Shown: piece after piece, positions 4,730 through 44,943 of the stretch | Position numbering within the stretch: the stretch's first letter is position 1 | How the letters are laid out: each line of letters starts with the position of its first letter | NCBI GenBank assembly: GCA_049283855.1 | Contig: JBAPWU010000062.1 | Coordinates: 1-46,860, forward strand | Length of the DNA stretch: 46,860 bases | Direction: 5' to 3' | From: Kineosporiaceae bacterium | Lineage (GTDB): Bacteria; Actinomycetota; Actinomycetes; Actinomycetales; Kineosporiaceae | Made by a program: the position numbers and the translations under genes | The notes under the pieces: model-generated | The model's database searches: none | Told to the model about the DNA's origin: nothing | Seen by the model: the letters and a program-made list of their open reading frames with translations, nothing else

Positions 4730-4802
4730 GCCCTCATCGTCTAGTGGCCTAGGACGCCGCCCTTTCAAGGCGGTAGCACGGGTTCGAATCCCGTTGGGGG
4801 TA
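4730..4802 (+). tRNA. tRNA-Glu (anticodon TTC)
   Basis: Cloverleaf folded by hand. Anticodon arm CCGCC-CTTTCAA-GGCGG, T-arm ACGGG-TTCGAAT-CCCGT, acceptor GCCCTCA/TGGGGGT (two G-U pairs). No encoded CCA. Confidence 0.88.
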
Positions 4803-4820
4803 CGGTCTTGGCACCACCAA

Positions 4821-4894
4821 GGCCCCGTAGCGCAGTTGGTTAGCGCGCCGCCCTGTCACGGCGGAGGTCGCGGGTTCGAGTCCCGTCGGGGTCG
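4821..4894 (+). tRNA. tRNA-Asp (anticodon GTC)
   Basis: Acceptor GGCCCCG/CGGGGTC, anticodon loop CTGTCAC, T-loop TTCGAGT. Confidence 0.9.
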
Positions 4895-4938
4895 CGTCGA
4901 GCGGACGACGTCACGCAGGTGACGTGCCCGGCTCGCCC

Positions 4939-5012
4939 GGCCAGGTAGCTCAGTTGGTACGAGCGTCCGACTGAAAATCGGAAGGTCGGCGGTTCGACCC
5001 CGCCCCTGGCCA
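4939..5012 (+). tRNA. tRNA-Phe (anticodon GAA)
   Basis: Acceptor GGCCAGG/CCTGGCC, D-arm GCTCAGTTGGTACGAGC, anticodon arm TCCGA-CTGAAAA-TCGGA, T-loop TTCGACC, discriminator A. Confidence 0.92.
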
Positions 5013-9022: not shown

Positions 9023-10345
9023 TCAACCAGTGGCTGAGACGAGGTCGTTGGGGTGCCAGAGCCGGTCGATCGGCATGACGTGGATGCGGTCGTCGTGGGT
9101 ATAGGTGCGTTGTCCGGTGGTCAGGACGACGCCGGCGCTGAACCGCGGACCGAGGGCTTGGCGCAGCTGCCGCAGGCCCGCCGTGTCGGCACTGGTGGCG
9201 CGCTGGTTGGCCTTGACCTCGAAGGCGACGACCTGCCCGTCGTCGAACTCGGCGACGACGTCGACCTCGGTCCCGTCACTGGTCCGCCAGTGCCCGAGAG
9301 TGACCTGCTCGTCGAGCCAGGACGCCTGCTTGCGCAGCTCGCCAACGACGAAGGTCTCCAGCAGGTTGCCGAAGTCGCTGAGCGCTGCCGGTTCGGCGGT
9401 CGCGAGCTTGGCTGGGGTGATCCGTAGCAGCCGGGCGGCCAGACCAGAGTCGACCAGATGCACCTTGGGACGCACGCTGACCCGCGAGCGCAGCGTCTTA
9501 CCCCACCCGAGAAGGCGGACCACCAGGAACAGGTCTTCCAGGAGCCGCAGGTGCGCCTCGGCGGTCCGGCGGTCTACCCCGATCGACTCAGCAGCCTTGG
9601 TGATGTTGAGCAGTTGCCCGGTCTGTGATGCCAGCCGCGTCAGCAGGTCCGCCAAGGACTGCCGCTGGCGGACCTGGCTCAGCTCGAGGGCGTCACGCTC
9701 GACGGACTGGCGGACGAAGTCGTCGAACCATCGCGCCCGCGCGACGTCCGACCGCTTCACCGCCAGCGGCAGCCCACCGGCGCAGACCCGGGCGGCATAG
9801 CCCTCCCGCGCGGTGCCCGAGACCGGGTGCTGCGCGACGACGGCGCCCGGGTCAGCCCGCAGGCCCTCAAGAAGGTTCTCCCGGGTACCCGCGAGCTCCC
9901 CCTGCGACAGCGGCCAGATCGTGACCGTGTGGAGCCGCCCGGTCAGCGCCTGCGCGGTCGTCGGCAGCGCGTCCTGGCGTGTCGACCCGGTGATCACAGC
10001 GGTCCCGGCGCGACTGCCTTCGCGGTTTAGCCGGGTCTTGATCGCATCCAGAACGTCCGGCACCCGCTGGTACTCGTCGACGCACAGCGGCGCCGGGCCA
10101 CCGGTGACCAGAGCCAGGTTGCCGGCGACCGCCTCACGGGTCTCGACGTCGTCCAGATCGATCACCGGGACACCACGGTCACGGGCCAGGATCTGCAGCA
10201 CCGTGGACTTCCCCACCGACCGCGGCCCGTGCAGCGCAATCACCGGCTCCTCCGTCACCAACTGCGACAGCAGCACACTGACACGTCTCGCGATCAGTCC
10301 GGACTCATCAGCCACGAAGTCAAGGTACCAAATCTGAGCCGCCAA
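9023..10345 (-). CDS. AAA+ ATPase with C-terminal DUF4143/PD-(D/E)xK-like module (COG1373 type), paralog 1
   Basis: Walker A GPRSVGKST, Walker B LCVDEYQ, C-terminal EVDVV...FEVKAN. Confidence 0.85.
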   Translation of the reverse strand: MAAQIWYLDFVADESGLIARRVSVLLSQLVTEEPVIALHGPRSVGKSTVLQILARDRGVPVIDLDDVETREAVAGNLALVTGGPAPLCVDEYQRVPDVLDAIKTRLNREGSRAGTAVITGSTRQDALPTTAQALTGRLHTVTIWPLSQGELAGTRENLLEGLRADPGAVVAQHPVSGTAREGYAARVCAGGLPLAVKRSDVARARWFDDFVRQSVERDALELSQVRQRQSLADLLTRLASQTGQLLNITKAAESIGVDRRTAEAHLRLLEDLFLVVRLLGWGKTLRSRVSVRPKVHLVDSGLAARLLRITPAKLATAEPAALSDFGNLLETFVVGELRKQASWLDEQVTLGHWRTSDGTEVDVVAEFDDGQVVAFEVKANQRATSADTAGLRQLRQALGPRFSAGVVLTTGQRTYTHDDRIHVMPIDRLWHPNDLVSATG

Positions 10346-10626
10346 ACTGTACGTTCTTGAGGGCCCGAAGCGCTCAGATGTGAGCGCGAGACCCGCCAGT
10401 TGGCCGACTGCTGGCCAGCCGCCCGACTAGAGACCCGCTGTTGACGCACAGCGGCGTTGCTGAGCCAGCGGGTGCCCCCGAGCCCGCCTTGCCGGCCGAC
10501 CCGTCCGGCGGCCACCGACTCGCATCGACTCGTTGCGGTCAGTCTCGCCCAGGACACGCCCACAAGACCCGTTCAAGCTGGCCGACCAGCGCGTCACCGC
10601 AGGTCAGCGTCGTCCCGTCCCAGAAG

Positions 10627-10678
10627 GAGCGTCTGCTGAAAATCGGAAGGTCGGCGGTTGGACCCCGCCCCTAGCCAC
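10627..10678 (+). repeat. attR-like direct copy of the 3' half of tRNA-Phe
   Basis: GAGCGTCTGCTGAAAATCGGAAGGTCGGCGGTTGGACCCCGCCCCTAGCCAC versus tRNA 4961-5013. Differences: 3 substitutions and a 1-nt gap. Confidence 0.8.
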
Positions 10679-10973
10679 ACTTGATCAAGCCCTGACCTGC
10701 AGCTTTGCTGTTCTTGATCAATGCCTGGGGTATGCGATCGACCTTCTGAGGCTTATCAGGCGATCTGCACTTCTTGCGACATCGTTCGAGCGTCAACAGG
10801 GCGCTGACCTGCGGTTTCACCGACAGTGGCCGACGGCAGTTCCACGCGCATCTGGCCTGCGCTCTCCCGCCAGTGTCGAAATCGTGTCGAAGTCCGCCCC
10901 TCCGCGAGATACCCCCGGTGGGTACTCGGCAGAGGTCGGCGCGGTCTTCCGGAGATCATCGGTGGCTTGCATC

Positions 10974-11906
10974 TCACGTGGCGCGTGGACGTCGCGCGTG
11001 GCGCGTGCGCCGGTAGGCCTCGACGGACTTGCGGGAGCTGCGCCAGACGCCGTCCGGGCCCTGGACGGCGTCCAGGCGGCCTCGTTGGGCGGCTTGGCGC
11101 AGCGCCGCGACGCTGAAGTCGTCATCGGCCAACGCCGCGAGGGGGACCAGCCGGGCCGGGCCGGCCACATCGGGGACGATGAACCGATTCAGGTTGTCCA
11201 GCATGGCCCGCGCGATCAACTCCCCCAGCGGACCGTGGTCACCGGCATCGGACTTCGTCATTGCCGCCAGATACGCGGACCGCTGCTGCTTGAAGATGAT
11301 CACCGGTGGGTAGCCCAGCCGGACCAGGACGAGGTTGAGCACCAGTCGGCCGGTGCGGCCGTTGCCGTCCAGGAACGGGTGCACACACTCAAACCCGTTG
11401 TGCAGCCGCGCAAGCTCCTCCGGCAGCGGCGCACCCAGAGCCGCGTCGTCGCGGACCGTGCGGCCCAGCACCCGCACCTGGTCCCCCCATGACGTGATCT
11501 GTGCCGGCACGTCCGGCCAGGGCGGTGGCGTCATCCCGGCCTGGAACGGGCGGATGTCATGGCGGCGGAAGCTGCCCGGCCCCTCCTGATCGGTCGCCTC
11601 CGGGTGCGGCGCGACTCCCCAGACCGGGCTGATCGCCAGATGGTGGATCCGGCGCACCTCATTTACGGTGATCAACTCGCCGTCGTTCCAGGCATCCGGC
11701 TCCAGGGCCTGCCCGTAGACCCACCTGGCAGCGTCCGCGTAGCCCTTGACCACCATGTACTCACTCAACGGCTTGGCGCCCACCGCCCGGCCCCGCTCCA
11801 GCAGCGCCTCGACCTCGCGCAACACCAGGGTGTTGCCCTCCAACGCCGTGGAGTGGTGGGCCTCCCGGTGCCAGATGACCCGGGCATGCCCATTCGTACA
11901 CTTCAA
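10974..11906 (-). CDS. Fic family protein (canonical AMPylation motif, N-terminal inhibitory-helix motif)
   Basis: HPFLDGNGRTGR matches HxFx(D/E)GNGRxxR. HSTALEGN near the N-terminus matches the (S/T)xxxE(G/N) autoinhibition motif. C-terminal wHTH-like tail. Confidence 0.85.
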   Translation of the reverse strand: MKCTNGHARVIWHREAHHSTALEGNTLVLREVEALLERGRAVGAKPLSEYMVVKGYADAARWVYGQALEPDAWNDGELITVNEVRRIHHLAISPVWGVAPHPEATDQEGPGSFRRHDIRPFQAGMTPPPWPDVPAQITSWGDQVRVLGRTVRDDAALGAPLPEELARLHNGFECVHPFLDGNGRTGRLVLNLVLVRLGYPPVIIFKQQRSAYLAAMTKSDAGDHGPLGELIARAMLDNLNRFIVPDVAGPARLVPLAALADDDFSVAALRQAAQRGRLDAVQGPDGVWRSSRKSVEAYRRTRHARRPRAT

Positions 11907-11954
11907 AGGTGCCGAAATGTCAAATAGGGGCCCGACCGATGGTTAGATAGACAG

Positions 11955-13226
11955 GTGGAGTACCGACGCCGCGTCGTGGACGACGAACTGGACGCACTGT
12001 TGCCCAGCCTCGCCGCGATCTCACTCGAGGGCGCCAAAGGCGTGGGCAAGACAGCGACTGCGACGGGTCGCGTGCGAACGGTTCTGGCCCTCAACGATCC
12101 GCGACAACGCCAGGTCGTCGCCGCCGACCCCGGGCTCATCGGACGCGCCGAGCCGCCCGTCCTGCTCGATGAGTGGCAACTCGAACCGACTGTCTGGGAC
12201 CAGGTGCGCACGCTGGTGGACGCCGACCCCAGCGGCGGCCGCTTCCTGCTCACCGGCTCGGCCGGCCCGACCCGAGAGGCACGGATCCACTCCGGCGCCG
12301 GCAGGATCGTCCGCTTGGTGATGCGGCCCCTTGCCCTGTCCGAGCGCGGCCTCGTCCCACCGACGGTGTCCTTGGCCGGGCTGCTGACCGGGGCCCGGCC
12401 AACGGTCACCGGAGATTCTCCGATCGACCTGGCCACCTACACCGATGAGATCCTGCGGTCGGGCTTTCCCGGGATCCGCCCGCTGCCACCACGGCCACGC
12501 CGCATCCAGCTCGACAGTTACCTCGCCCGCGCCCTCGATCACGATATGGAGGAGAACGGGATCCGTGTGCGCAAGCCGGCCGCGTTGCGGGCATGGCTCA
12601 CCGCCTACGCCGCGGCGACCGCAACCACTGCCGCCTACAACGTCATCCTGGACGCGGCAACGCCCGGCGACGGCGACAAACCGACTCGCCAAACCGTCGC
12701 CGTCTACCGGGAGAGCCTCGAACGGCTCTTCCTGCTCGACCCCCTGCCCGCATGGGTGCCCAGCCTGTCCCCGCTGAAGCGCCTGACCGCCTCCCCCAAA
12801 CACCACCTGGTCGACCCTGCACTGGCCGCCCGCCTGATCGGCGTCGATGCGTCCGCGCTGCTCCGCGGGGCCGGTGACCGGCTGGCACCCAACGACGGAC
12901 CTCTCCTCGGCGCACTGTTCGAATCCCTTGCCGTCCAGACCGTCCGAGTGCTCGCCCAAGCCGCCGAAGCCCGAGTCCACCACCTGCGCACCAAGAGCGG
13001 CGATCACGAGATCGACATCGTCATCGAGGGGCCAGACCGGCGTATCGTGGCCGCCGAAGTCAAACTCAACCCCGTCGTCACCGATGACGACACCACCCAG
13101 TTGCGCTGGCTGCACAACACCATCGGCGAACGAGCAGCCGACCTCATCGTCCTCACCACAGGCCCGCACGCCTACCGGCGCCCGGACGGCATCGCCGTCA
13201 TCCCACTGACACTCCTCGGCCCCTGA
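11955..13226 (+). CDS. AAA+ ATPase with DUF4143/PD-(D/E)xK-like module, paralog 2
   Basis: GTG start. Walker A GAKGVGKTA, Walker B VLLDEWQ, C-terminal EIDIV...AEVKLN. Divergent from the Fic gene with only 48 bp between the starts. Confidence 0.8.
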   Translation: MEYRRRVVDDELDALLPSLAAISLEGAKGVGKTATATGRVRTVLALNDPRQRQVVAADPGLIGRAEPPVLLDEWQLEPTVWDQVRTLVDADPSGGRFLLTGSAGPTREARIHSGAGRIVRLVMRPLALSERGLVPPTVSLAGLLTGARPTVTGDSPIDLATYTDEILRSGFPGIRPLPPRPRRIQLDSYLARALDHDMEENGIRVRKPAALRAWLTAYAAATATTAAYNVILDAATPGDGDKPTRQTVAVYRESLERLFLLDPLPAWVPSLSPLKRLTASPKHHLVDPALAARLIGVDASALLRGAGDRLAPNDGPLLGALFESLAVQTVRVLAQAAEARVHHLRTKSGDHEIDIVIEGPDRRIVAAEVKLNPVVTDDDTTQLRWLHNTIGERAADLIVLTTGPHAYRRPDGIAVIPLTLLGP

Positions 13227-15817: not shown

Positions 15818-18800
15818 TCACAGGGGCTGGAGGCCCAGGGTGCCGACCAGGTCGGCCTGGTAGGCGGGCTTGGACACCCGCGCCAACTCGGCGTGGATCT
15901 GCTGCAGGTTGCGCTGCACGTGCAGCCGTTCGGCCGTGTCGACGTTGGTCTCGCCGGACTGAAACCGCTCCAGCCGCGCAGCCGCCCGCTTGTAGTGCTC
16001 CACGTCGTACTGCTGCTTGGCCGCCAACCGCTGCGCGTACCACGAGCTGGCCAGCACGCTGTCGCGGGTGAATTGCGCGCGCAGTTCGGGCGAGCGGACG
16101 GTCCAGCCCTCCTCGGAGGCTCCGGTGGCCATGAACTGCAGCAGCGACCGCAGCGGTGGCACGGCGAGCGCGATGGTGTCGTCGTCGATGAACGACTGGG
16201 CGACCCGGCGATGCGTCTCGACGATGACCTCGATGCTGTCGGCGTAGACGTCGGCGTCCTGCAGTTCGGGGGCCAGCATCTCGTCGGTGAACACCGTGTC
16301 CGGGTGCAGGAAGATGCGCGCGAAGAAGGTCGTGGCGAACCGGCGATTCATCCGGTGTCCGAGTCGTCCGGCCTCGACGGTGCGCCCGTTGCGCTCGACG
16401 TCGGGCACGGCGTCGAGGTAGCCGTTCTCCCTGAGCCACGATGCGTCCCGCTCGCGCGGTGACATACGGCTGAACAGTTCCGGCACGAGCAGGCTCACGT
16501 CGTGGTCGACCCGGACCCTGGGCCCGATGAAGCCCGCGCTGGAGATCCAGCCGTCGTACCCGGTCAACGCATAGCTGAGGAAGGAGGCGTTCAGGTCGAT
16601 GATCGAGGGCAGCATGTTGAAGGGGCCCTTGGTCAGCGCACCCTCGGAGCCGGCGCCGGTGGTGGACGGCGACTTGCCGGTCATCGAGCTGATGAACTCC
16701 ATGAAGAGCTCGGGCAGCTCCATGTAGTGCAAGGGGTTGTACGAGCACAGGGCCGGCGCGTCCGCCTCGGGCGCGTTGTTGCGCCGTCCGGCGGCCACCA
16801 CATCGACCGCCAGCGGAGCGAACTCGGCCAGCGGCCTGTGGTGCAGAAGGTGACTGGCGATGTCCGCGAGCTGGGTGGCCACGGGGTTGGCCCGGTCAGG
16901 GCGCACCTGCAGGTAGCGGGGGTTCTTGCTGGGGCGCCCGCCCACCAGGCGCGGCTCGGAGGAGCTCGCGACGTACTCCGGTGATCCCTCACCCGCGGCG
17001 AAGCGGGCCAGCAGGTCCTTCATCGGATCGGTGAACCGGCTGAACGAGACGGCGTCCTGCACCAGCGCCGTAGCCTCGGGCCGGGTGATCGGGGCGAAGT
17101 TCGACAGGAACGTGCCAGGAGTGGCGATGTCGCGCTCGGCCTGCTTGTCGTAGCCGCGGTGGATCGCGTCGTCCGGACGCTGGAACAGCAGTTGCTCGCA
17201 GTTGGCGACGTACTTCCGGGACAGGGTCTCCTGGCCGGCTGCCTCGCTCCGGGCCTGCTGCAGACCGCGGCGGTGGCTGAAGTCCGGCGGCGGCTCGTCC
17301 GCCGGCAGCACGACGCTCGCCGTGATGTCGTCCTCGGTCTGGACCTTCACGGCGGGGCTGAAGTCGGGGCGCAGCGTGAACAGCCGCCAGGAGCCGTCCT
17401 GCTGGAAGCCCATCCGGAGCATGTTGACGATGATCAGCTCACCGTCGAGCCGGACCCGGCTGCCTGGTCGTCCGTTGATGTTGCTGACCGAGAAGTGCCG
17501 GCGCCAGTCCTGACCCCACTCGGGCCGGTAGTACTTCTTCACCAGGAAGAGCAGTTCCTTGACGTGAGGCGGGATGGCGCGCAGCCGCTCGTTGTGCGCG
17601 TCGGCGAAGTCCGGGCTCGGGGTGAGCAGCTTGACCACGCTGCCGAGACTGCGCTCGGGGGAGAGGATCGGGCGGTGGTCACGGTTCCACGACGGGTCGC
17701 GGTAGCGGTCGGCGAAGTCGGTGGCGATCAGTTCGGCGACCGCCTCGATGTCGCTGTCGAAGTCCTGGATCGCGGTGTGGCCGAAGACGAACGCATCCAG
17801 GAGTGACTTGCTGATCTCGCTCTTGCCTCCGCCGGAGACCGTGGCCGGCTTGTGGCACTGGGTCGAGATCGGTGAGATCCCCAGCAGGTGCCACTGCGTC
17901 CGGTCGGCCTCGCGCGGCTTGGCGAGCACCCGGTAGCCGTTGGGTGTCATGTAGACGTGGCCGGCCCGCAGCGGGATGGTGAACTTCTCGCCGCTGCGTC
18001 CGGTCCAGGTCACACTGCGGCGTGGCAGGCTGAACGAACTGCCGGCCGGAACGAGGATGAGCTCGGCCAGCCGGGTGTCGAGCGCATGGCCCTCGGTCTG
18101 GAGCGCGAACCGGTCGGGGTTGGTCGTGACCACTTCGTTGATCGAGTACTCCGCCGGAGTGAAGGTGTCGGTGTACTCCTGGCCCAGGTTGTAGGAGGGG
18201 TAGCAGATGGCGCCGCCGGAGTGCTCCTCCTCGGCGAGACCGAACAGATTCGCGGCGTAGCTGATCTGTGTCTTCACCTCCTTCTTGCAGTAGCCGAAGT
18301 AGTTGTCCGCGATGACCGTGACGACGACGCCGCGGGCGTCGCGCGCACAGACCTTGAACGCCTGGCCGCGGTTGTAGCGCTCGTCGGGCGTCGCCCAGCA
18401 CATGCCGTCCCGCTTCTGGCGGTCGGTGGCCTGATCGAGGTGTGGCAGGCCCAGCTCCTGCTTGGTCAGCGTGGTCAGGTGCGGCGCCAGGATGACGCAG
18501 CCGGTGTGCCCGGTCCAGGTGACCGGGGTCAGCGAGGCATCGTTCTCCGGCAGGTAGGGGTCGCCCCCATTGCCGAAGATCCCCTCGACGAAGTCCAGGT
18601 TGGCCACCAGGCCGCCGGGCACGATGAAACGCGTCTCCATCGAGCGGGCCACGGGCACCTTCGCGGTGGCGGGCACGACCAGGGGGCGCAGCAGGAGCGA
18701 GACCCAGGTGCGGGCCGGCTCGGGGGAGGTCGCCGTCCAGGGCAGCACCAGATCGTCGGCCGCCGGCTGCAGCGCCGACGCGAGCAGGCGGGCGAAGACG

Positions 18801-19246
18801 TCCTTCGGCACCGCGACCTTGTCGTCCTGGATCGGCAGTCCGCCCTCGGCGATGTGGAACACCCCGGCGGTCGTGCGCCGGTCGTTGGCCGGGTTGTGCA
18901 GGACGCCATTGGCGAGCCGGTAGCTGGAGATCAGGCGCGAGGTGAACGCGTCGGAGTCGCGGGGCAGCGAGAGTTCCCGGGCGAGTCCCGGCTCGTCGAG
19001 CACCAGGGTGCGCCGTGGCAGTTGCGGCTGCACGGGGCTGTCCGCGAGGAAGGAGTCGAGGAACGCCTGGATGCGCCGGTCCGCCGCACACGGGCGGTCG
19101 GCAAGGCGTCGGCTCAGCTCGCGGTTGCGGGCCAGGACGGGGGAGACCAGACGGAACGGCTCCTCGGCGGCGGCGCCCGGGGGAAGTGGCAGCCCCGACA
19201 TGGCCAACCGCAGCATGATCGCGCTGGACCCGTGGACGTCAGACAT
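15818..19246 (-). CDS. 1142-aa protein, tentatively PPi-dependent phosphoenolpyruvate carboxykinase (EC 4.1.1.38)-like
   Basis: Uninterrupted high-GC3 ORF of about 126 kDa, the size class of PPi-PEPCK known from Propionibacterium, Actinomyces and Entamoeba. P-loop-like SGGGKSE and a conserved-looking block ADNYFGYCKKEVKTQISYAANLFG. The CDS is certain; the product call comes from memory of the family. Confidence 0.5.
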   Translation of the reverse strand: MSDVHGSSAIMLRLAMSGLPLPPGAAAEEPFRLVSPVLARNRELSRRLADRPCAADRRIQAFLDSFLADSPVQPQLPRRTLVLDEPGLARELSLPRDSDAFTSRLISSYRLANGVLHNPANDRRTTAGVFHIAEGGLPIQDDKVAVPKDVFARLLASALQPAADDLVLPWTATSPEPARTWVSLLLRPLVVPATAKVPVARSMETRFIVPGGLVANLDFVEGIFGNGGDPYLPENDASLTPVTWTGHTGCVILAPHLTTLTKQELGLPHLDQATDRQKRDGMCWATPDERYNRGQAFKVCARDARGVVVTVIADNYFGYCKKEVKTQISYAANLFGLAEEEHSGGAICYPSYNLGQEYTDTFTPAEYSINEVVTTNPDRFALQTEGHALDTRLAELILVPAGSSFSLPRRSVTWTGRSGEKFTIPLRAGHVYMTPNGYRVLAKPREADRTQWHLLGISPISTQCHKPATVSGGGKSEISKSLLDAFVFGHTAIQDFDSDIEAVAELIATDFADRYRDPSWNRDHRPILSPERSLGSVVKLLTPSPDFADAHNERLRAIPPHVKELLFLVKKYYRPEWGQDWRRHFSVSNINGRPGSRVRLDGELIIVNMLRMGFQQDGSWRLFTLRPDFSPAVKVQTEDDITASVVLPADEPPPDFSHRRGLQQARSEAAGQETLSRKYVANCEQLLFQRPDDAIHRGYDKQAERDIATPGTFLSNFAPITRPEATALVQDAVSFSRFTDPMKDLLARFAAGEGSPEYVASSSEPRLVGGRPSKNPRYLQVRPDRANPVATQLADIASHLLHHRPLAEFAPLAVDVVAAGRRNNAPEADAPALCSYNPLHYMELPELFMEFISSMTGKSPSTTGAGSEGALTKGPFNMLPSIIDLNASFLSYALTGYDGWISSAGFIGPRVRVDHDVSLLVPELFSRMSPRERDASWLRENGYLDAVPDVERNGRTVEAGRLGHRMNRRFATTFFARIFLHPDTVFTDEMLAPELQDADVYADSIEVIVETHRRVAQSFIDDDTIALAVPPLRSLLQFMATGASEEGWTVRSPELRAQFTRDSVLASSWYAQRLAAKQQYDVEHYKRAAARLERFQSGETNVDTAERLHVQRNLQQIHAELARVSKPAYQADLVGTLGLQPL

Positions 19247-37246: not shown

Positions 37247-38074
37247 ATGAGTGCCACCGGAGGAGCAGCAGCGGCCGGGCGCCGTGCCGCCAACAGCAGG
37301 GCCTTGGAGATCGCCGCCCGGGCAGGGTTCATCGCCCGCGGCGGGATCTACGTCCTGGTCGGCATCATCGCCGTACAGATCGCCCTCGGTCACGGTGGGC
37401 AGGCCGACCGCGGCGGTGCCCTGACCCAGATCGCCACCAAGAGCTACGGCACCGCGCTGCTGTGGGCGCTCGTCCTCGGATTCGCCGGCCTGACGCTGTG
37501 GCGACTGAGCGAAACAGTGTTCGGCGCCAACGCCCCCGGTGGCCAGCAGACAGGCGAGCGACTCAAGTCGCTTGCCTCGGCCGTGCTGTACGCGTTCTTC
37601 GGCGTCAGCACCTTCCAGCTGGTGACCGGGGCATCCACGAACGCCACCGCCAACGGGAACAACCAGCCCAAGGCGGTGACCGCACGGGTCATGACCTACA
37701 GCGGCGGCCGCCTCCTGATCGGACTCGCCGGCATCGTGATCCTGGCCGTCGGCGTCATGCTGGCCCGCTCCAGCTGGACCAAGGAGTTCCTGCAGCGGAT
37801 GAACCTCGCCGGCGCACCCACCGGCACCCGCACCCTCGTGGAGATGCTCGGAGTCATCGGCGGAGTCGCTCGAGGCGCAGTGATCGCACTCGCCGGCGTC
37901 TTCGTTCTCGTCGCCGCCGTGCGCTTCACCCCATCCCGGGCCGAAGGCATGGACGGAACCCTGCGGGCCTTCGCCAGCACACCGCTCGGCCCCTTCCTCC
38001 TGATCGCCGTCGCCCTCGGACTCATCGCGTTCGGAGCGTTCTCCTGGTGCGAGGCCCGCTGGCGGAGGGTCTAG
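37247..38074 (+). CDS. DUF1206-type membrane protein
   Basis: Three repeated TM-pair units (ARAGFIARGGIYVLVGIIAV...; ...LIGLAGIVILAVGV; GVARGAVIALAGVFVLVAA...). Confidence 0.75.
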   Translation: MSATGGAAAAGRRAANSRALEIAARAGFIARGGIYVLVGIIAVQIALGHGGQADRGGALTQIATKSYGTALLWALVLGFAGLTLWRLSETVFGANAPGGQQTGERLKSLASAVLYAFFGVSTFQLVTGASTNATANGNNQPKAVTARVMTYSGGRLLIGLAGIVILAVGVMLARSSWTKEFLQRMNLAGAPTGTRTLVEMLGVIGGVARGAVIALAGVFVLVAAVRFTPSRAEGMDGTLRAFASTPLGPFLLIAVALGLIAFGAFSWCEARWRRV

Positions 38075-38102
38075 TTCTCCTCGAGAGACACTGATGAACG
38101 AC

Positions 38103-38133
38103 TGCACTCATGATGCATTATCATGCACTCATG
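38103..38133 (+). promoter_or_regulatory. 10-bp direct repeat TGCACTCATG ... TGCACTCATG (21-bp register) spanning the XRE gene start
   Basis: Copies at 38103-38112 and 38124-38133, flanking an ATGCAT-centred AT-richer patch. The second copy contains the probable start codon. Confidence 0.3.
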
Positions 38134-38736
38134 GACGAGAGTATCGCCGCTATGGCCTCGGCGATCGGGGGCCGAGTCAGGCGGGAACGTCAGTCGCGGC
38201 AGTGGACGCTGGACCACCTGGCAGAGGCTGCCGGTGTCAGCCGCCGGATGGTGATCAACGTCGAGCAGGGGGCTGCGAACCCCAGCGTGGGAACCCTGTT
38301 ACGAATCAGCGACGCGCTCGGCATTGGACTGCCGGCGCTGGTCGAAGCGCCACAAGCCAAGCCGGTCAGGGTCACCCGCAGCGGCCGCGGCGCTGTGCTG
38401 TGGACCGGTGAGGCCGGCGGACGCGGAGTCCTGGTCGCCGGCACCGAACCGCCCGATGTGCTCGAGTTGTGGGAGTGGACCCTGGGTCCGGGTGACCGTC
38501 ACGTCAGCGAGGCCCACACGCCAGGCACCAGAGAGTTGCTGCACGTCCAGCAGGGCACGATCACGGTCGAGGTCGCGAACGAGTCGCTCACCCTCGCCAC
38601 CGGTGACGCGCTCGCCTTCTCCGGCGACGTGACCCACTCCTACTCCAACTCGGGCACACGCCCGGCGAGGTTCTCCCTGGCGGTCTTCGAGCCGGGTGTG
38701 GGGACAGTTGCCCGATCGACGACGAGCGATGCCTGA
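38131..38736 (+). CDS. XRE-family HTH regulator with C-terminal cupin domain
   Basis: IGGRVRRERQSRQWTLDHLAEAAGVSRRMVINVEQGAANPSVGTLLRISDAL plus a cupin-like segment (ELLHVQQGTITVEV...GDALAFSGDVTHSY). Start is 38131, 38110 or 38152. Confidence 0.85.
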   Translation: MDESIAAMASAIGGRVRRERQSRQWTLDHLAEAAGVSRRMVINVEQGAANPSVGTLLRISDALGIGLPALVEAPQAKPVRVTRSGRGAVLWTGEAGGRGVLVAGTEPPDVLELWEWTLGPGDRHVSEAHTPGTRELLHVQQGTITVEVANESLTLATGDALAFSGDVTHSYSNSGTRPARFSLAVFEPGVGTVARSTTSDA

Positions 38737-38826
38737 GCGCAGTGCAGCGACGCCGCCTCGCCGCCTCGGCGACTGGCAGAGCTATCGCGGCCGGCACCGA
38801 TCACGTCCCCTCCGAAAGGCACACCT

Positions 38827-40071
38827 ATGAATGCCAGTTCGACCGGGCCGTCCGCAGAAGCCATGCGGGGCCGTCCGGACAAGTACGACTGCACCACGCT
38901 GGACGACGCGTCGTGGGCCGTGCACGGCGGAAACCGCGCGGACGACACCACGGGGGCTATCCGCACCCCCATCGTGATGGCGAACTCCTACCGACTCCCG
39001 CGGGACCCGACCACCCTGGACGACTCCGATGTCGACGCGCTCGTCTACACCCGCGAGTCCGGCGCCAATCAGCTTGGCCTGCAGGCGAAGTTGGCCCACC
39101 TGGAGCACGGCGAAGCAGCAGCGGTCTTCGGCACCGGCATGGCAGCCCTGCACGCCACTTTCGTCACGCTGCTGAACCCCGGCGACCACGCCATCGTCTC
39201 CAACGTCGTGTACATGCGGGTCTGGGGCCTGTTCGATTCCCTGCTACCGGCCAAGCTCGGCATCGAGGTCGACTTCGTCGACATCACAGATCTCGACGCC
39301 GTGCGCGCGGCCCTACGCCCCAACACCCGCCTCATTCACACAGAAGTCATCGCCAACCCGGACCTCCGTGTCGCCGAGATCGCCCCGCTCGCCGACATCG
39401 CCCACACCAACGGCGCGCTGCTGACCGTCGATTCAACCTTCACGCCGCCACCCCTGTCGCGACCACTCGACCTGGGCGCAGACCTGGTCATCCACTCCTT
39501 GACCAAGTACATCAACGGCCACGGCGACGCGATGGGTGGCGCCGTCATCGGTACCCGCGACCTCATCGACGAGATCAAGTCAGGTGCCATGCACCACGTG
39601 GGCGGCGCCATCGCCCCGTTCAACGCCTGGCTCATCATGCGCGGCTCCGTCACCTTGCCCCTACGGCTGCAACGCCACTGCGAGAACGCACGAGCCATCG
39701 CGGACTTCCTCGCCCACGATCCCCGGGTTGCCCACGTCGCCTACCCGGGCCTGCCCGGCGACGCCCGACACACCCGGGCAGCAGCCCAGCTCAACGGCAA
39801 CCACGGCGGGATCGTCTCCTTCGCCATCGCGGGCGAACACGAGGACCGTGTGCGGTTCGTCAACGACCTGCGTCTGATCACCTCGGCGGTCTCCCTCGGG
39901 CACGACGAGACCCTCATCGCCTACGAGCAGTATCCCGAAGCTCGGGCAGCTGCCTTCCCATCCCCATTCCGTGACCACGGACTCATCCGACTCGCCGTCG
40001 GTCTCGAGCACGCACAGGACCTCCTCGCGGACCTCGACGCCGCTCTCACCACCGCATACGGCGGGCTTTGA
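38827..40071 (+). CDS. Cys/Met-metabolism PLP-dependent enzyme (methionine gamma-lyase / cystathionine gamma-synthase family)
   Basis: SLTKYINGHGD (PLP lysine motif), GTGMAALHA, TVDSTFTPP and a C-terminal IRLAVGLE. Confidence 0.85.
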   Translation: MNASSTGPSAEAMRGRPDKYDCTTLDDASWAVHGGNRADDTTGAIRTPIVMANSYRLPRDPTTLDDSDVDALVYTRESGANQLGLQAKLAHLEHGEAAAVFGTGMAALHATFVTLLNPGDHAIVSNVVYMRVWGLFDSLLPAKLGIEVDFVDITDLDAVRAALRPNTRLIHTEVIANPDLRVAEIAPLADIAHTNGALLTVDSTFTPPPLSRPLDLGADLVIHSLTKYINGHGDAMGGAVIGTRDLIDEIKSGAMHHVGGAIAPFNAWLIMRGSVTLPLRLQRHCENARAIADFLAHDPRVAHVAYPGLPGDARHTRAAAQLNGNHGGIVSFAIAGEHEDRVRFVNDLRLITSAVSLGHDETLIAYEQYPEARAAAFPSPFRDHGLIRLAVGLEHAQDLLADLDAALTTAYGGL

Positions 40072-40170
40072 CCGAGCCCGCCACGGCGTCACCAGAGCTG
40101 GTATCTACAGGCCCCCTCGGAGCTTCCTGTCAGATGACCGTTTGTCGGGCACGAAGCACCGGAGGCCGTC

Positions 40171-41742
40171 ATGCCGCAGGACCTCGAGATCCTCGTCGAG
40201 CCGTACGAGGACGAGATCACCAACCGGATCGCGCACTGGCGTGACGTGCTGGTGCGGCACGATCGCGTCCGCGAGGGCCTCGGCGACGCCGACCCTTCGA
40301 CGCTCCAGATACTCGGCCCACACCTGCCCGGCCGCAAGCGGGAGGAGTCCTCCCCGTTCGTCGCCACGGTGTTCGACCCGGGGGAGAACCGCGCGGTCGA
40401 GGTCCGGGGACGGCTTGACGCCGATGAGGTCGAGGTGACGTCGAGCGCCTTCCGGCCGAACCCGACCGAGGAGGAACTGCGTGCGGCGGCCGGGATCCTG
40501 CGCGCCGACGAAGGCTTCGCCCGGCTGCGCGAACGGGACGACGTCGTGGTCTACCAGCCGATGCCTCCGCTGTCGGACGCCGAGCGGGACGACGGCACGA
40601 CGGCCCGTCGGATCGGGCTGGCCGTGTTCGACCCGGCCGCCGAGCAGCCCCACCGGTACGCGGCGGTGGACATCGGCGAGCGGCTCGTCGAGTGGGACCC
40701 GGGCTGGTTCCATGCGCTCGACGGGGACTGCGAGGACCACCTGCCCGTCGGGGTCGAGTCCCTCGCCGACGCCGGTGGTCGGGACTGGGTCCGGGTCCGG
40801 GTGATCCGCGGTGGCGAGGAGCTGTGGAACCTCGTCGTCGTTCGCCCACGCGCCTCCGCCCCCACCCACGTCGGCAAGGGTTCGGGTGTCGAGCTCAAGT
40901 ACGTGACCTACCGCGGCCGGCTCGTGCTGTGGCAGGCCCACGTTCCGATTCTCAACGTGCTCTACGACGACGGAGTCACCTACAGGGACTGGCAGAACCA
41001 GGAGACCCCGTTCCTCGCCGACGGCTTCGACCCGGTCGGCCCCGGATGGCGGGTGTGCACCTCACCGCCGGCGACCATCCTGGAGTCCGGCACCGACGCC
41101 GGGAACTTCCAGGGCGTCGCCCTGCACTACGCGGACGGCGAGCTGCGGATCGTCAGCGAGGTCCAGGCCGGCTGGTACCGCTACATGTCCGACTGGCGAC
41201 TGCGCGACGACGGCACGATCGCACCGCGGTTCGGCTTCGCCGGCACCCGCAACCCTCGTACCTGCATGCGCCACCAGCACCACGTGTACTGGCGCCTGGA
41301 CTTCGACATCGACGGTGCCGGGAACGATGTGGTCGAGGAGCGGGGCCTGTCCCTGCCGGGCCGTCCCCTGTGGTGGCGGCTCGTCCGCGAGACGAAGCGC
41401 AAGCGGACCCTCTTCGCGCGGCGGTGGCGGGTCCTGGACGCCCGCACCGGCCGCGGCTACCGCATCAACCCCGGCTCGGCCGACGGCACCGCGGACGGCT
41501 ACGGCGTCGCCGACCTGTGGTTCCTGCGCTACCGGTGGACCGAGCTCGACGACGGCGTCAGCGTCGTCGGCGGAACGCCCACGGACACCCAGTGCCGGCT
41601 CGACCAGTACCTCACCGGGGAGTCGATCGACGGCACCGACGTCGTCATCTGGTACGCCGGGCACTTCGTCCACGACGAGGAACACCCCTCACCGCATCAG
41701 GGCCACATCGTCGGCCCCGAACTGCGGCCCATCAACTGGTAG
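40171..41742 (+). CDS. divergent copper amine oxidase (CAO)-like protein
   Basis: CMRHQHHVYWRLDFDIDGAGNDVVEE parallels the CAO block HQH-x-F-x-x-RLD-x-x-IDG-x-x-N-x-V-E (two Cu ligands). DVVIWYAGHFVHDEE parallels the third-His block. GWYRYMSDWRLRDDGTI sits where CAOs have G-N-Y-(D/E)-Y...DG-I. No signal peptide. Confidence 0.6.
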   Translation: MPQDLEILVEPYEDEITNRIAHWRDVLVRHDRVREGLGDADPSTLQILGPHLPGRKREESSPFVATVFDPGENRAVEVRGRLDADEVEVTSSAFRPNPTEEELRAAAGILRADEGFARLRERDDVVVYQPMPPLSDAERDDGTTARRIGLAVFDPAAEQPHRYAAVDIGERLVEWDPGWFHALDGDCEDHLPVGVESLADAGGRDWVRVRVIRGGEELWNLVVVRPRASAPTHVGKGSGVELKYVTYRGRLVLWQAHVPILNVLYDDGVTYRDWQNQETPFLADGFDPVGPGWRVCTSPPATILESGTDAGNFQGVALHYADGELRIVSEVQAGWYRYMSDWRLRDDGTIAPRFGFAGTRNPRTCMRHQHHVYWRLDFDIDGAGNDVVEERGLSLPGRPLWWRLVRETKRKRTLFARRWRVLDARTGRGYRINPGSADGTADGYGVADLWFLRYRWTELDDGVSVVGGTPTDTQCRLDQYLTGESIDGTDVVIWYAGHFVHDEEHPSPHQGHIVGPELRPINW

Positions 41743-41752
41743 CGGCGGCAGA

Positions 41753-43810
41753 TCAGCCGGCCACCGCCTGGGCGCGGCGCTCCAGCGCGAGCTCGCGGAT
41801 CCTGGCGATGTCCTCCGCGGTGTAGGCGCCATTGACGCCGGAGATCAGGGCCAGCTTCATCCCGTGCTTGAGGCCCAGCTGGTAGATCTCCTTGACCTTC
41901 TCCCACTCGATGTCGCGGCCGACGGTGAAGGTCTCGTAGCGCCCCTCCAGGGCCAGCACGACGGTCTCGGCCAGGCAGGCATAGGCCACGCCCTTCGGAA
42001 GGCCGATGCTCTTCATATTCACGTCGCCGGGCAGCTCGATCTCACCGGACTCGACCACGAGGACGTCGGGACGCTTGGCCACGTCCTCTGCCGAGAGGTC
42101 CAGCGGGCGCGCCACGTCCGTGATCACGCATCCTGGCTTGACCGCCATGATGTCCAGGACGCGCCGACCGGCCCCCGAGGTCGCTGTGACGATGAGATCC
42201 ATGTCCTCGATGTGCCCGTTGGGAGTTGCCGCGACGTGGATCTCGGCCCGGGGGTTCCCTCGTTCGATGTCGTGCTTGAGGGCCAGCAGCTTGGCCGACT
42301 CGGGCGAGACCAGCCACAACTCATCAGTGGACAGGGCCAGCAGCCTGGCGCAGACCGAACCGATGGCCCCGCTGGCGCCCACGACCATGGCCTTGCCCTT
42401 CATCCGTCCCTGGTCGTCGACCTCGGCGAGCCCGAGTTGCAGCAGCGCCTCGTGCGCTGCCCACAGAGCGCCGGAGGCGCTGTAGCTGTTGCCGGTCGTG
42501 ATCGGCAACGGAGCCCGCTTGGCCACCGTCACGCCCGCGTCACCGACGACCTTGGTGAACGCGCCGAGCCCCATGACCTGCGCGCCGAGCTTCCGCGCGG
42601 TCTCGGCCGCCGCGAGCAGCCGTCCGTAGGTGAACTCGGGATCGTGGGCCATCAGTTCCTTGGGGGTTCCCCCCACCGTGATGAGCCAGCCCTCGGCCTC
42701 GGCGCCCGTGGGTGACTTGATGCCGGTGACGTGGCTGTAGGTGAACGGCGGCGAGTACGCCATCGCCTTCTCCACCACGTCCATCACCACCGGGGGCGAC
42801 ATCCTGGTGATCGTGCCGAGTGGCTCGACGTTTCGGAAGTACTCCTGCGACAGCGGGTGGATGACGAAGGCGAACCTGCTCTTCCGCTTGGGCCCGTTCG
42901 GGTAGAGCACCCGGGGCTCCAGGCCCGCTGAGACGATCATGTCGAGCAGATCGTCGTTGGTCAGGCGCCCGCTGCTGGAGGTGATGGCCAGCATCATGGC
43001 CTCGAGGACCGCCGCCGAGACGGTGACGGGGAAGGGCTGAGGAGTGGCGTCGAGCACCATGTCCACGCCGCGGCCGGCCATCTCTGCGAGCCGGTCGTCG
43101 GAGATGGCCGAGGTGACGACGGTCTTGCCGGCCAGATCCTCCAGCCCGAAGCCGGTCAACTCGTCGTAGGTGGCAACCACCACATCGCAGTCGCGTGCGG
43201 CCTTGCGCGCCATCGCGTGGCTGATCCGGTGGCCCGGCGCATTGATCTGGGACTGCACCTGACCCGGGAGCCTCCGGACCGGCCACAGCGCCATCTTCGC
43301 CGCCAGTCCCAGGACCGGGTGGGAGTCGAGCCTGGCCGGCAGATCCAGACGCAGCAGCGGGTCGGCGAACTCCAGGTTCGGGGTGAACTCGCGGAGGATC
43401 CGCGTGGTCCGGTCGTGGTTCACGCCGCCGAGAACCACGATCCGGGCGTTGTTGAAGAACCCCGGCATCTCGGTCTGGACGTGCCGGATCGCCCACTCCT
43501 GCAGGACATCGCGCAGTGCGTGCCCTGCCGTCACGGGTACCGCCGAGGCGGCGTGCATGACCCGCTCGATCGCCTTCAACTCCCCGTCGTACAGCCCGGC
43601 GGCCCGCGCCTCCCGGATGCCGGTGACGGCGATCGCGGCGGCTTGCTCGGCCCACGTGCGGGCGAGCGCCTCCGCGGCGGCGACGTCACCGTTGGTCCCC
43701 ACCCGCACGATCCGGAAGGCGTGGTTGAGGAAGGTGACGTGCTCGTCGTAGTCCCGATCCGACCCCATGAGGCTGACGTTGACGACGAGCGTGGGTGTGG
43801 GCCTTGGCAT
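41753..43810 (-). CDS. fusion protein: N-terminal domain of the family often annotated quinate 5-dehydrogenase, plus a C-terminal acyl-ACP reductase (AAR, EC 1.2.1.80)-like NAD(P) domain
   Basis: ATG at 43810 with AAGGAG upstream. N-terminal half: LVVNVSLMGSDRDYDEHV...RVGTNGD. C-terminal half: FVIHPLS...LGAFTKVV...TTGNSYSA...VVGASGAIGSVCARLL...YACLAETVVLALEG...FTVGRDI, co-linear with my memory of Synechococcus AAR. Confidence 0.7.
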   Translation of the reverse strand: MPRPTPTLVVNVSLMGSDRDYDEHVTFLNHAFRIVRVGTNGDVAAAEALARTWAEQAAAIAVTGIREARAAGLYDGELKAIERVMHAASAVPVTAGHALRDVLQEWAIRHVQTEMPGFFNNARIVVLGGVNHDRTTRILREFTPNLEFADPLLRLDLPARLDSHPVLGLAAKMALWPVRRLPGQVQSQINAPGHRISHAMARKAARDCDVVVATYDELTGFGLEDLAGKTVVTSAISDDRLAEMAGRGVDMVLDATPQPFPVTVSAAVLEAMMLAITSSSGRLTNDDLLDMIVSAGLEPRVLYPNGPKRKSRFAFVIHPLSQEYFRNVEPLGTITRMSPPVVMDVVEKAMAYSPPFTYSHVTGIKSPTGAEAEGWLITVGGTPKELMAHDPEFTYGRLLAAAETARKLGAQVMGLGAFTKVVGDAGVTVAKRAPLPITTGNSYSASGALWAAHEALLQLGLAEVDDQGRMKGKAMVVGASGAIGSVCARLLALSTDELWLVSPESAKLLALKHDIERGNPRAEIHVAATPNGHIEDMDLIVTATSGAGRRVLDIMAVKPGCVITDVARPLDLSAEDVAKRPDVLVVESGEIELPGDVNMKSIGLPKGVAYACLAETVVLALEGRYETFTVGRDIEWEKVKEIYQLGLKHGMKLALISGVNGAYTAEDIARIRELALERRAQAVAG

Positions 43811-43848
43811 GGTGACTCCTTGGGTTGTGCTGCCCTCCGGCTGCGTGC

Positions 43849-44943
43849 TCAGACCATCGCCGAGGAGTCGATCTCCGGATGGTCGATCATGAAGTCCAGC
43901 AGCCGGCCGGCGTAGCTCTCGAACGGTGGGCACTCCACCCCCGTACCGGCGAGGTCGGCGACCGTGTTGACGGTGGAGTAGGTGGTCGACGAGGCGAAGT
44001 AGTCCAGCAGTTCGGCCGGCAGTCCGAGCAGGCGCTCCAGCCCCGGCACCGAGCCGAGCACGAAGCGGGTGATGCCCAACGGCAGCGGCACCCAGATCAA
44101 CCGCTTCCCGAGGTGGCCGGCGAAGATGTCGGCGACCTGGCGGGCCGTCGGCGGGTTCGGGTCCGTGAGGGCATAAGTCCGCCCGACCGACCGGTCGAGC
44201 ACGGACAACTGGTCCATCGCATCGATGACGAAGTCGCGGGGAACCAGGGACGTCTTGACGCTGTCCGGGACGGCGGGGAGCACGGCCACAGGGAGTTGCC
44301 TGCGCAGGAACGTCGCCACGAAATAGGGACCGTCGTACTTCTGGGTCTCACCGGTGTGGGAGTCGCCGACGACGATCCCCGGTCGGTAGACCGTCGCCGG
44401 GAGGCCGTCCGTGATCGCTTTGCGGACGAGCATCTCGGCTTCGAACTTCGTGGACTCGTAGTGGTTGTAGAAGGTCTGCCCCTCATCGAGAGCATCCTCA
44501 GTGAACTCGCCCTGATACCGCCCACTGACATAGCAGGTGCTGACGTACTGCAACCTGCGCAAGTGCGGGAGCGACCTGCAGTACTCCAGGACCTGCGCCG
44601 TCCCGGTGACGTTGACCCGACGCGCCACCGCTTCGGGGACTGTCAGGTCGTAGATCGCCGCCAGGTGCCAGACCTCGGTCACCTCGTCGAGGACGTCGTT
44701 GGACGCCGGGTCGATCCCCAGGCCAGGGCGAACGATGTCGCCCTCCACCAGGTCGATCCGGTTCAGCGTGTGGGGATGATCGGCTTCGATCTCATGGACT
44801 CGACGCCGCGCCGTCGCCAGGTGCTGGGGCTGGACCACGCAGATGGCCCGCACCCCTTCGCGACGGGCCAGCAGACGGGGAAGCAGGGCAGAGCCGAGGA
44901 AGCCGGGGAACCCGGTCAGCAGCAGTGCAGTCACGCGATTCAC
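43849..44943 (-). CDS. SDR-superfamily reductase, NAD_binding_4 / thioester (fatty acyl-CoA) reductase-like
   Basis: LLTGFPGFLGSALL Rossmann motif, YESTKFEAE (YxxxK), 38 nt upstream of the AAR-like gene on the same strand. GTG start. Confidence 0.8.
   Translation of the reverse strand: MNRVTALLLTGFPGFLGSALLPRLLARREGVRAICVVQPQHLATARRRVHEIEADHPHTLNRIDLVEGDIVRPGLGIDPASNDVLDEVTEVWHLAAIYDLTVPEAVARRVNVTGTAQVLEYCRSLPHLRRLQYVSTCYVSGRYQGEFTEDALDEGQTFYNHYESTKFEAEMLVRKAITDGLPATVYRPGIVVGDSHTGETQKYDGPYFVATFLRRQLPVAVLPAVPDSVKTSLVPRDFVIDAMDQLSVLDRSVGRTYALTDPNPPTARQVADIFAGHLGKRLIWVPLPLGITRFVLGSVPGLERLLGLPAELLDYFASSTTYSTVNTVADLAGTGVECPPFESYAGRLLDFMIDHPEIDSSAMV

Follow-up and report, generated by a model that had tools for sequence, protein, structure and literature searches.

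A predicted copper amine oxidase-fold protein of the W-Y-R-Y clade adjoins a conserved XRE-cupin/PLP enzyme unit in a Kineosporiaceae bacterium

Introduction

Do three consecutive genes on an actinomycete contig form one functional module, or do they belong to separate units that happen to lie side by side? The question is raised by positions 38103-41742 of a 46,860-nt stretch of DNA from a Kineosporiaceae bacterium (assembly GCA_049283855.1, contig JBAPWU010000062.1, positions 1 to 46,860), referred to here in its entirety as the window, which has an actinomycete-like composition of ~69% GC. The region starts 7 nt before its first ATG (38110) and was described in an earlier note, made from the sequence of the window, as an uncharacterised module of an XRE-cupin regulator, a pyridoxal 5'-phosphate (PLP) enzyme of the methionine gamma-lyase family and a divergent protein resembling copper amine oxidases (CAOs). 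All three genes, together with every motif that had been quoted from them, were confirmed by open reading frame (ORF) calls, Pfam and translation. The genes lie on the same strand and are separated by gaps of 90 nt (regulator to PLP gene) and 99 nt (PLP gene to CAO-like gene):

38110-38736, + strand: XRE-family helix-turn-helix (HTH) and cupin transcriptional regulator, 208 aa; Pfam HTH_3 (E 5e-10) and Cupin_2 (E 7e-12)
38827-40071, + strand: PLP enzyme of Cys/Met metabolism, 414 aa; Pfam Cys_Met_Meta_PP PF01053 (E 9e-101)
40171-41742, + strand: CAO-like protein, 523 aa, leaderless, with a predicted D2-D3-D4 architecture; Pfam Cu_amine_oxid, AlphaFold2 (AF2) model, Foldseek and hhalign

Comparison with related loci suggests that the region probably consists of two unrelated units that happen to adjoin, the regulator and PLP genes on one side and the CAO-like gene on the other.

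Conservation of the three-gene arrangement

Gene neighbourhoods were compared at 86 loci encoding CAO-like relatives and at 86 loci encoding relatives of the PLP enzyme. The former comprise 83 loci (80 plus three) searched by tblastn with flanks of up to 6-8 kb, the loci L098 and L099, and one locus read via a gene table; the latter comprise six ortholog contexts and 80 metagenomic loci, 44 of which have at least 1.7 kb of downstream sequence. The PLP gene is present in none of the 86 CAO-like loci and the CAO-like gene is present in none of the 86 PLP loci, and neither the trio nor even the PLP/CAO pair was found in these two sets outside this contig. At locus L004, in a Kineosporiaceae metagenome-assembled genome (MAG) with an 84%-identical ortholog of the CAO-like protein, the 4 kb upstream contain no PLP gene, and the PLP loci, including those with orthologs of 84-87% identity, contain no CAO-like gene. 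A relative of the XRE-cupin regulator occurs in one of the 83 tblastn-searched CAO-like loci (L082, 39% identity), and the DUF1206, 726-aa, short-chain dehydrogenase/reductase (SDR) and glycoside hydrolase (GH) neighbours found in the window gave no match in any of these 83.

Because the trio is not co-conserved at any of these other loci, the outcome that had been named beforehand as speaking against it, the three-gene module is not supported. The function proposed for the trio from the pairing of its genes, catabolism or modification of an unusual amine or thio-amino compound, is therefore left without comparative support. It is improbable that the regulator, the PLP enzyme and the CAO-like protein nevertheless work as one module on such a compound, at least in this lineage. 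The shared strand, the gaps of 90 and 99 nt and the absence of a predicted terminator between the genes would suit this arrangement, and one pathway could in principle include enzymes of both kinds, a gamma-lyase and an oxidase of amines, but neither the trio nor the pair recurs in either set of 86 loci, the regulator travels with the PLP gene alone and the CAO-like gene has a conserved upstream element of its own. Judged from these loci, the CAO-like gene is an incidental neighbour of the regulator-PLP unit. The idea of a pathway composed of a PLP lyase, an amine oxidase and a sensor stems from adjacency on one contig only and is no basis for hypotheses on function.

Clustering of the neighbours at the 83 CAO-like loci yielded synteny within Streptosporangiaceae only, with a beta-lactamase-like hydrolase at 41 loci, a RecD2-like helicase at 27 and an L,D-transpeptidase at 22, and no partner shared across lineages. 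In Streptosporangiaceae (Nonomuraea, Streptosporangium and others) a gene for a beta-lactamase-like serine hydrolase of ~446 aa directly follows the CAO-like gene in the same orientation, as at L080 (7564-8904, gap of 28 nt), an adjacency that could reflect either lineage synteny or a local operon. The contexts of more distant relatives likewise contain no common partner. Two single cases place such relatives near genes for other copper oxidases: a galactose-oxidase-like gene follows the CAO-like gene in plasmid 3 of Variovorax sp. WDL1 (L180, 7821-11602), and a tyrosinase/VWA gene lies ~4 kb from that of another member (P0118) on a metagenome contig. It is possible that these genes cluster with other copper oxidases.

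The XRE-cupin/PLP unit

In Micromonospora (L094) and Saccharopolyspora (L095), orthologs of the regulator lie directly upstream of orthologs of the PLP enzyme, and in Streptomyces (L096) the regulator ortholog lies two small ORFs upstream of the PLP ortholog; regulator identities in these genera range from 65-77%. The same order is present in 8 of the 12 close metagenomic orthologs of the PLP enzyme with enough upstream sequence, and the regulator was not seen beside PLP relatives of 61% identity or less. The XRE-cupin and PLP genes are thus a conserved two-gene unit across several actinomycete genera, apart from the CAO-like gene.

Many relatives carry small conserved genes between the two, encoding a ~111-aa protein with a weak B3_4 match together with one of two others, a ~101-aa protein or a 148-aa FMN_bind_2 protein. 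The loci with intervening small genes are L100, L102, L108, L109, L112, L114, L116, L138, L096 and L092, and such genes are absent from the window and from the Micromonospora and Saccharopolyspora loci. A Pfam search with the ORFs between the regulator and PLP genes of L100 gave no matches, and tblastn ties these ORFs to the small conserved genes.

The 208-aa regulator resembles PuuR-type HTH-cupin regulators in its N-terminal XRE HTH and C-terminal cupin and gives a weak full-length match to PuuR (residues 17-188), but it scores only 33 bits against a model cutoff of 211 and is therefore not a PuuR ortholog. The 414-aa enzyme belongs to a tight actinomycete orthogroup, with 75-87% identity across genera, and its match to PF01053 covers profile positions 3-380 of 381. 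Among solved structures it is closest to entries of methionine gamma-lyase (MGL) from Citrobacter freundii (E 3e-85). Like MGL from C. freundii and Pseudomonas putida, the enzyme has a full-length PF01053 fold-type I domain and retains the PLP lysine, with K227 in S-L-T-K-Y-I-N-G-H aligning with its MGL counterpart. Unlike MGL, it lies below the equivalog cutoffs for MGL, cystathionine gamma-synthase (CGS) and cystathionine gamma-lyase (CGL), as it does for every NCBIfam equivalog (TIGR01328, 301.8 against 549.7 bits; NF005695, 302.5 against 666), and it has Arg at the Cys115/116 position, so that Y-M-R stands opposite the Y-G-C115 of C. freundii MGL. In wild-type MGL the residue is Cys115; the PDB entry used for the alignment, 5m3z, has His there. 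On this evidence the protein is best described as an MGL-like gamma-lyase-family enzyme, not a canonical MGL, under the XRE-cupin regulator. The cupin domain of the regulator may sense a small molecule and so control a reaction of the gamma-lyase type, with a sulfur amino acid or a related one as substrate.

In Nocardioides sp. Soil797 (L097, 3602-6206) the ortholog of the PLP gene is divergently oriented beside egtB-like (FGE-sulfatase/DinB_2) and egtD-like (Methyltransf_33) genes, which hints that the ortholog is linked to ergothioneine or thiol-histidine metabolism in that strain.

Upstream element of the CAO-like gene

The gap between the PLP and CAO-like genes has features of its own:

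40072-40170, + strand: PLP-CAO spacer, 99 nt, carrying a conserved upstream element and a ribosome-binding site

Within the spacer, GGTATC (40100-40105) and TGAC (40135-40138) are followed by a GGAGG ribosome-binding site (40161-40165). A bipartite element, consisting of GTATCA, ~28 nt and TGA(C/G) and situated 56-72 nt before the start codon, is common to eight orthologous CAO-like loci (the window, L004, L005, L006, L007, L008, L010 and L018), which represent the window, a Kineosporiaceae MAG, five Kribbella strains and Luteipulveratus. The upstream sequence around the element is otherwise unalignable among the eight loci, and the PLP gene is not among the upstream genes of the element-bearing loci where these were examined. 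The element could be an operator or an unusual promoter, and its position inside the PLP-CAO spacer is consistent with the CAO-like gene having its own promoter or operator. The CAO-like gene is probably a stand-alone gene that is transcribed on its own. This is weakened by the 99-nt gap itself, which contains no predicted terminator, so read-through from the PLP gene is possible; a consensus scan of 37900-42100 found neither a sigma-70 promoter nor a terminator.

Fold and family of the CAO-like protein

Pfam PF01179 matches the 523-aa protein at 41 bits, against a gathering score of 27, and covers only the C-terminal part (residues 402-523), and a single-sequence phmmer search of the PDB returned no matches. 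A family profile was built from A1, a 45-sequence alignment of CAO-like relatives down to 47% identity. Searched against the PDB, this profile matched solely CAOs and CAO-family lysyl oxidases, with the Arthrobacter globiformis enzyme (AGAO) as the top match (E 1.4e-5). An AF2 model built on A1 has a pLDDT of 90.6 and a pTM of 0.91, and all 50 of the Foldseek matches listed for it are CAOs, among them the Escherichia coli enzyme (ECAO), AGAO, VAP-1, bovine plasma amine oxidase and HPAO (best E 3e-20; TM-score on the query 0.51-0.59; 15-19% identity in the structural alignments). The family was also aligned by hhalign to eight classical CAOs, namely E. coli tynA and seven genes from a plasmid collection, including one from the Nonomuraea gerenzanensis chromosome that is filed there. 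This alignment (Prob 99.4%, E 8.7e-21, 497 aligned columns) places query residues 1-523 on ECAO 113-743, the entire D2-D3-D4 architecture. The NCBIfam primary-amine oxidase model NF008559 gives the protein 24.6 bits against a cutoff of 651, with residues 365-394 alone aligned. Pfam, the PDB profile search, hhalign and Foldseek on the AF2 model thus agree with the CAO fold assigned in the earlier note, and the 523-aa protein is predicted to be a CAO-fold protein with D2-D3-D4 architecture.

A word-indexed search with the 523-aa protein found 924 homologs at E<=1e-3; of those with a name nearly all are called 'hypothetical protein', and a few, in UniRef, copper amine oxidase. The CAO-like features are far beyond chance, because there are 924 homologs and the motif residues are invariant across the 45-sequence alignment. 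The GC content at third codon positions (GC3) of the gene is 0.93, typical of a well-adapted gene.

The protein had been noted as ~100 aa shorter than classical CAOs and as lacking a signal peptide. The difference in length is somewhat larger, at ~120-145 aa relative to the full-length, signal-less classical CAOs fetched (644-667 aa), and in the hhalign alignment most of it is due to the loss of 20, 26 and 16 residues at three places in D4, the catalytic domain. The N-terminus is acidic and non-hydrophobic (maximum 15-residue Kyte-Doolittle hydropathy of 0.09), and the protein therefore has no signal peptide; this is not an anomaly, as most of the classical CAOs fetched are also without an evident leader. 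AGAO is a cytoplasmic enzyme, and the 523-aa protein is presumably cytoplasmic as well.

Active site

By translation the protein contains G334-W-Y336-R-Y338, the histidine block R367-H368-Q-H370-H371-V-Y-W-R-L-D-F-D-I-D-G-A-G-N-D-V-V-E and the C-terminal block W494-Y-A-G-H498-F-V-H501. The codons of the putative active-site residues are located as follows:

40963-41004, + strand: Y265-E278; Y265 is the predicted equivalent of the conserved active-site Tyr, and D273 and E278 are candidates for the general base (alignment)
41173-41184, + strand: W335-Y336-R337-Y338; Y336 aligns with the position of the topaquinone (TPQ) precursor (alignment with ECAO)
41263-41283, + strand: C365-M-R-H368-Q-H370-H371; H368 and H370 are predicted Cu ligands 1 and 2 (alignment)
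41671-41673, + strand: H501, predicted third Cu ligand (aligns with ECAO H689 and AGAO H592)

The mapping of the active site is based on profile alignments alone. Y336 aligns in hhalign with Y496 of the ECAO precursor, which is TPQ466 in mature numbering, and it places H368 and H370 on ECAO H524 and H526; the PDB profile search places the same two residues on AGAO H431 and H433, and both put H501 on the C-terminal ligand His. The Tyr and His residues therefore fall where the earlier note had expected them, on the TPQ Tyr and the Cu ligands. In addition, Y265 aligns with ECAO Y369 (AGAO Y284), and D377, D379 and D490 align with the peripheral-metal aspartates D533, D535 and D678 of ECAO. Y336, the three His and Y265 are invariant in the 45 sequences and near-universal in 150 representatives of clusters at 50% identity, and the conservation of the Cu and cofactor-site residues across the clade argues for a retained catalytic metal/cofactor site.

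The protein is likely to be a copper enzyme in which Y336 is still in use, and Y336 as a TPQ precursor proper is slightly favoured over another cofactor. Cu(II) would be bound by H368, H370 and H501, Y336 would be self-processed into a topaquinone-type quinone, and an amine would be oxidised to an aldehyde with release of H2O2. In place of the classical Asp base, an acidic residue of the invariant D273/E278 pair may act, and the flanking W335 and R337, together with C365, H371 and the three loop deletions, may reshape the pocket for a substrate unlike those of classical CAOs.

Certain features of the active site weigh against this reading. The classical catalytic Asp (AGAO D298, ECAO D383), 14 residues past the conserved Tyr, has no exact counterpart: it is aligned to a gap in hhalign, the next 20 ECAO residues are deleted, and in 1:1 register from Y265 its position is occupied by T279, with the invariant E278 one residue and D273 six residues before it. 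W-Y-R-Y stands in place of the near-invariant N-Y-(D/E)-Y consensus for TPQ, which is unmet although the Tyr is present and aligned, and in classical CAOs both residues flanking the TPQ Tyr influence TPQ biogenesis and orientation.

These departures invite a different reading, in which the copper site is kept without topaquinone being made, the enzyme performs another copper-dependent oxidation, and the Tyr is a Cu ligand, a radical site or a partner in another cross-linked cofactor, for instance with C365 or W335. This is possible but doubtful. It would account for W335, R337, C365 and H371 being near-universal where the aligned classical CAOs have other residues, and for the unaligned base Asp and the deletion of the adjacent 20-residue channel segment; the two members near other copper oxidase genes (galactose-oxidase-like in Variovorax, tyrosinase-domain on a metagenome contig) also point in this direction. 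Against it, every requirement of self-processing that can be checked by alignment (the Tyr, the three His and Y265) is retained, and an acidic residue, E278, lies one position off the classical base. As candidates for a cross-link, C187 and C296 are constant among the close relatives but not across the clade as a whole.

That the protein is a non-catalytic relic, or a structural protein that keeps the fold only, is hardly credible. The loss of the canonical TPQ consensus and of an exact catalytic Asp would fit such a relic, but more than 80 columns, including every metal-ligand position, are invariant down to 47% identity and across phyla, the GC3 of 0.93 is that of a well-adapted gene, and a dead enzyme would not be expected to conserve its ligand residues in this way.

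The W-Y-R-Y clade

An exhaustive profile search over 1.84 billion cluster representatives, with clusters defined at 50% identity, identified 373 clusters at E<=1e-30, 888 at E<=1e-10 and 1493 at E<=1e-3. The best 150 representatives were aligned to the family hidden Markov model (HMM), and 142 of the 147 that cover the TPQ site read W-Y-R-Y (WYRY). Across the 150, W335, R337, Y265, D273, E278, C365, H368, H370, H371 and H501 are near-universal, and the invariance of C187, C296, H161, H257 and H498 is confined to the close actinomycete subgroup. A C187-C296 pair was considered as a family-defining disulfide or cross-link and was dropped, as both residues vary across the wider clade. In the classical CAOs aligned, the position of C365 is occupied by G or A and that of H371 by I, F, M or L.

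The clade HMM gives classical CAOs only 13-22 bits and the best 150 clade representatives at least 276 bits. This, and the count of WYRY among the representatives, bears out the suggestion that W-Y-R-Y marks a distinct clade. Nonomuraea gerenzanensis (NZ_LT559118.1) has separate loci for a classical CAO (3569994-3571838) and for a member of the WYRY clade (6524128-6525612), the latter 56% identical to the 523-aa protein of the window, and the coexistence of the two in one organism indicates that they are separate lineages.

Members of the clade are present in Actinomycetota (including Acidimicrobiia), Acidobacteriota, the betaproteobacterium Variovorax, Bacillus and one fungus, and all those with a name are labelled 'hypothetical'. 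The fungal member, from Calcarisporiella thermophila (XP_069255115.1, P0251), has a signal peptide and may either have arisen by horizontal transfer or point to a broader distribution. Outside the actinomycetes, many members begin with Sec, lipoprotein or twin-arginine leaders; twin-arginine-like leaders, found in 4 of the 25 extended N-termini that were inspected, would be suited to exporting the protein already folded and with its cofactor in place. The longest members carry P-domain, DUF11, fn3 or Big_12 modules, as in surface proteins, and the protein of the window belongs to a leaderless branch.

No description of the WYRY clade was found in the searchable literature. Plant clade I (zeta) copper amine oxidases (CuAOs) are reported to lack the T/S-X-X-N-Y-D motif and are suspected of a different function, in a CuAO phylogeny that spans plants and animals only (PMC12058724). 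The WYRY clade is like this plant clade in its loss of the canonical TPQ consensus. Unlike the plant clade, in which the motif is wholly gone, it keeps the Tyr in another, strictly conserved context, and it is bacterial save for its one fungal member.

Other features of the window

Convergent with the CAO-like gene is a gene for a 726-aa protein that resembles, in its C-terminal half, the PigE N-terminal domain and acyl-ACP reductase, and its start overlaps the end of a gene for a 364-aa NAD_binding_4 SDR of the thioester-reductase type (41753-44943, - strand, for the pair). The two proteins are probably a fatty acyl reduction system. Further away, a 1142-aa ORF (15818-19246, - strand; GC3 0.93) matches no Pfam model at E<=1e-4, and a Fic/DOC gene (10974-11906, - strand) lies between two AAA_14/DUF4143 ATPase genes (9023-13226). 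A strong negative GC skew and a positive AT skew are present at ~12-16 kb. Rfam detected three tandem tRNA genes (4730-5012, + strand), far upstream of the trio, and nothing else in the window.

Discussion

The 523-aa protein would belong to a variant, so far uncharacterised, of a known enzyme superfamily. With AGAO (phenylethylamine oxidase) and ECAO (TynA) it shares the predicted D2-D3-D4 architecture with its D4 beta-sandwich, the H-x-H and C-terminal Cu histidines, the cofactor Tyr, the active-site Tyr of AGAO Y284, the R-L-D-x-D-x-D-G block and the peripheral-metal Asp; it differs from them in its W-Y-R-Y motif, the lack of an exact catalytic Asp, the D4 deletions and the extra C365 and H371. 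CAOs are the classic example of a quinone cofactor that a protein makes from its own residue by self-processing, and N-Y-(D/E)-Y around that residue is regarded as nearly diagnostic for them. The WYRY clade, which is large, spans several phyla and is labelled 'hypothetical' in databases, strictly conserves a different context (W-Y-R-Y with a nearby Cys and a fourth His) while keeping the copper site and the Tyr.

We tentatively raise, as a less likely reading, the idea that the clade forms a class of its own among copper quinoproteins or copper oxidases, in which the near-universal W335, R337, C365 and H371 would build either a new protein-derived cofactor, such as a Cys- or Trp-linked quinone from Y336, or a TPQ site with new chemistry or substrates. 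If it is true, peptide or protein amines are one possible substrate for the secreted, cell-surface-anchored members, and the leaderless actinomycete branch, including the gene of the window, would have a metabolic role so far undescribed. Characterising one member would reveal either that TPQ biogenesis tolerates an altered pocket or that another cofactor or reaction has evolved on the CAO scaffold, and would also assign a function to a widespread protein family of soil bacteria.

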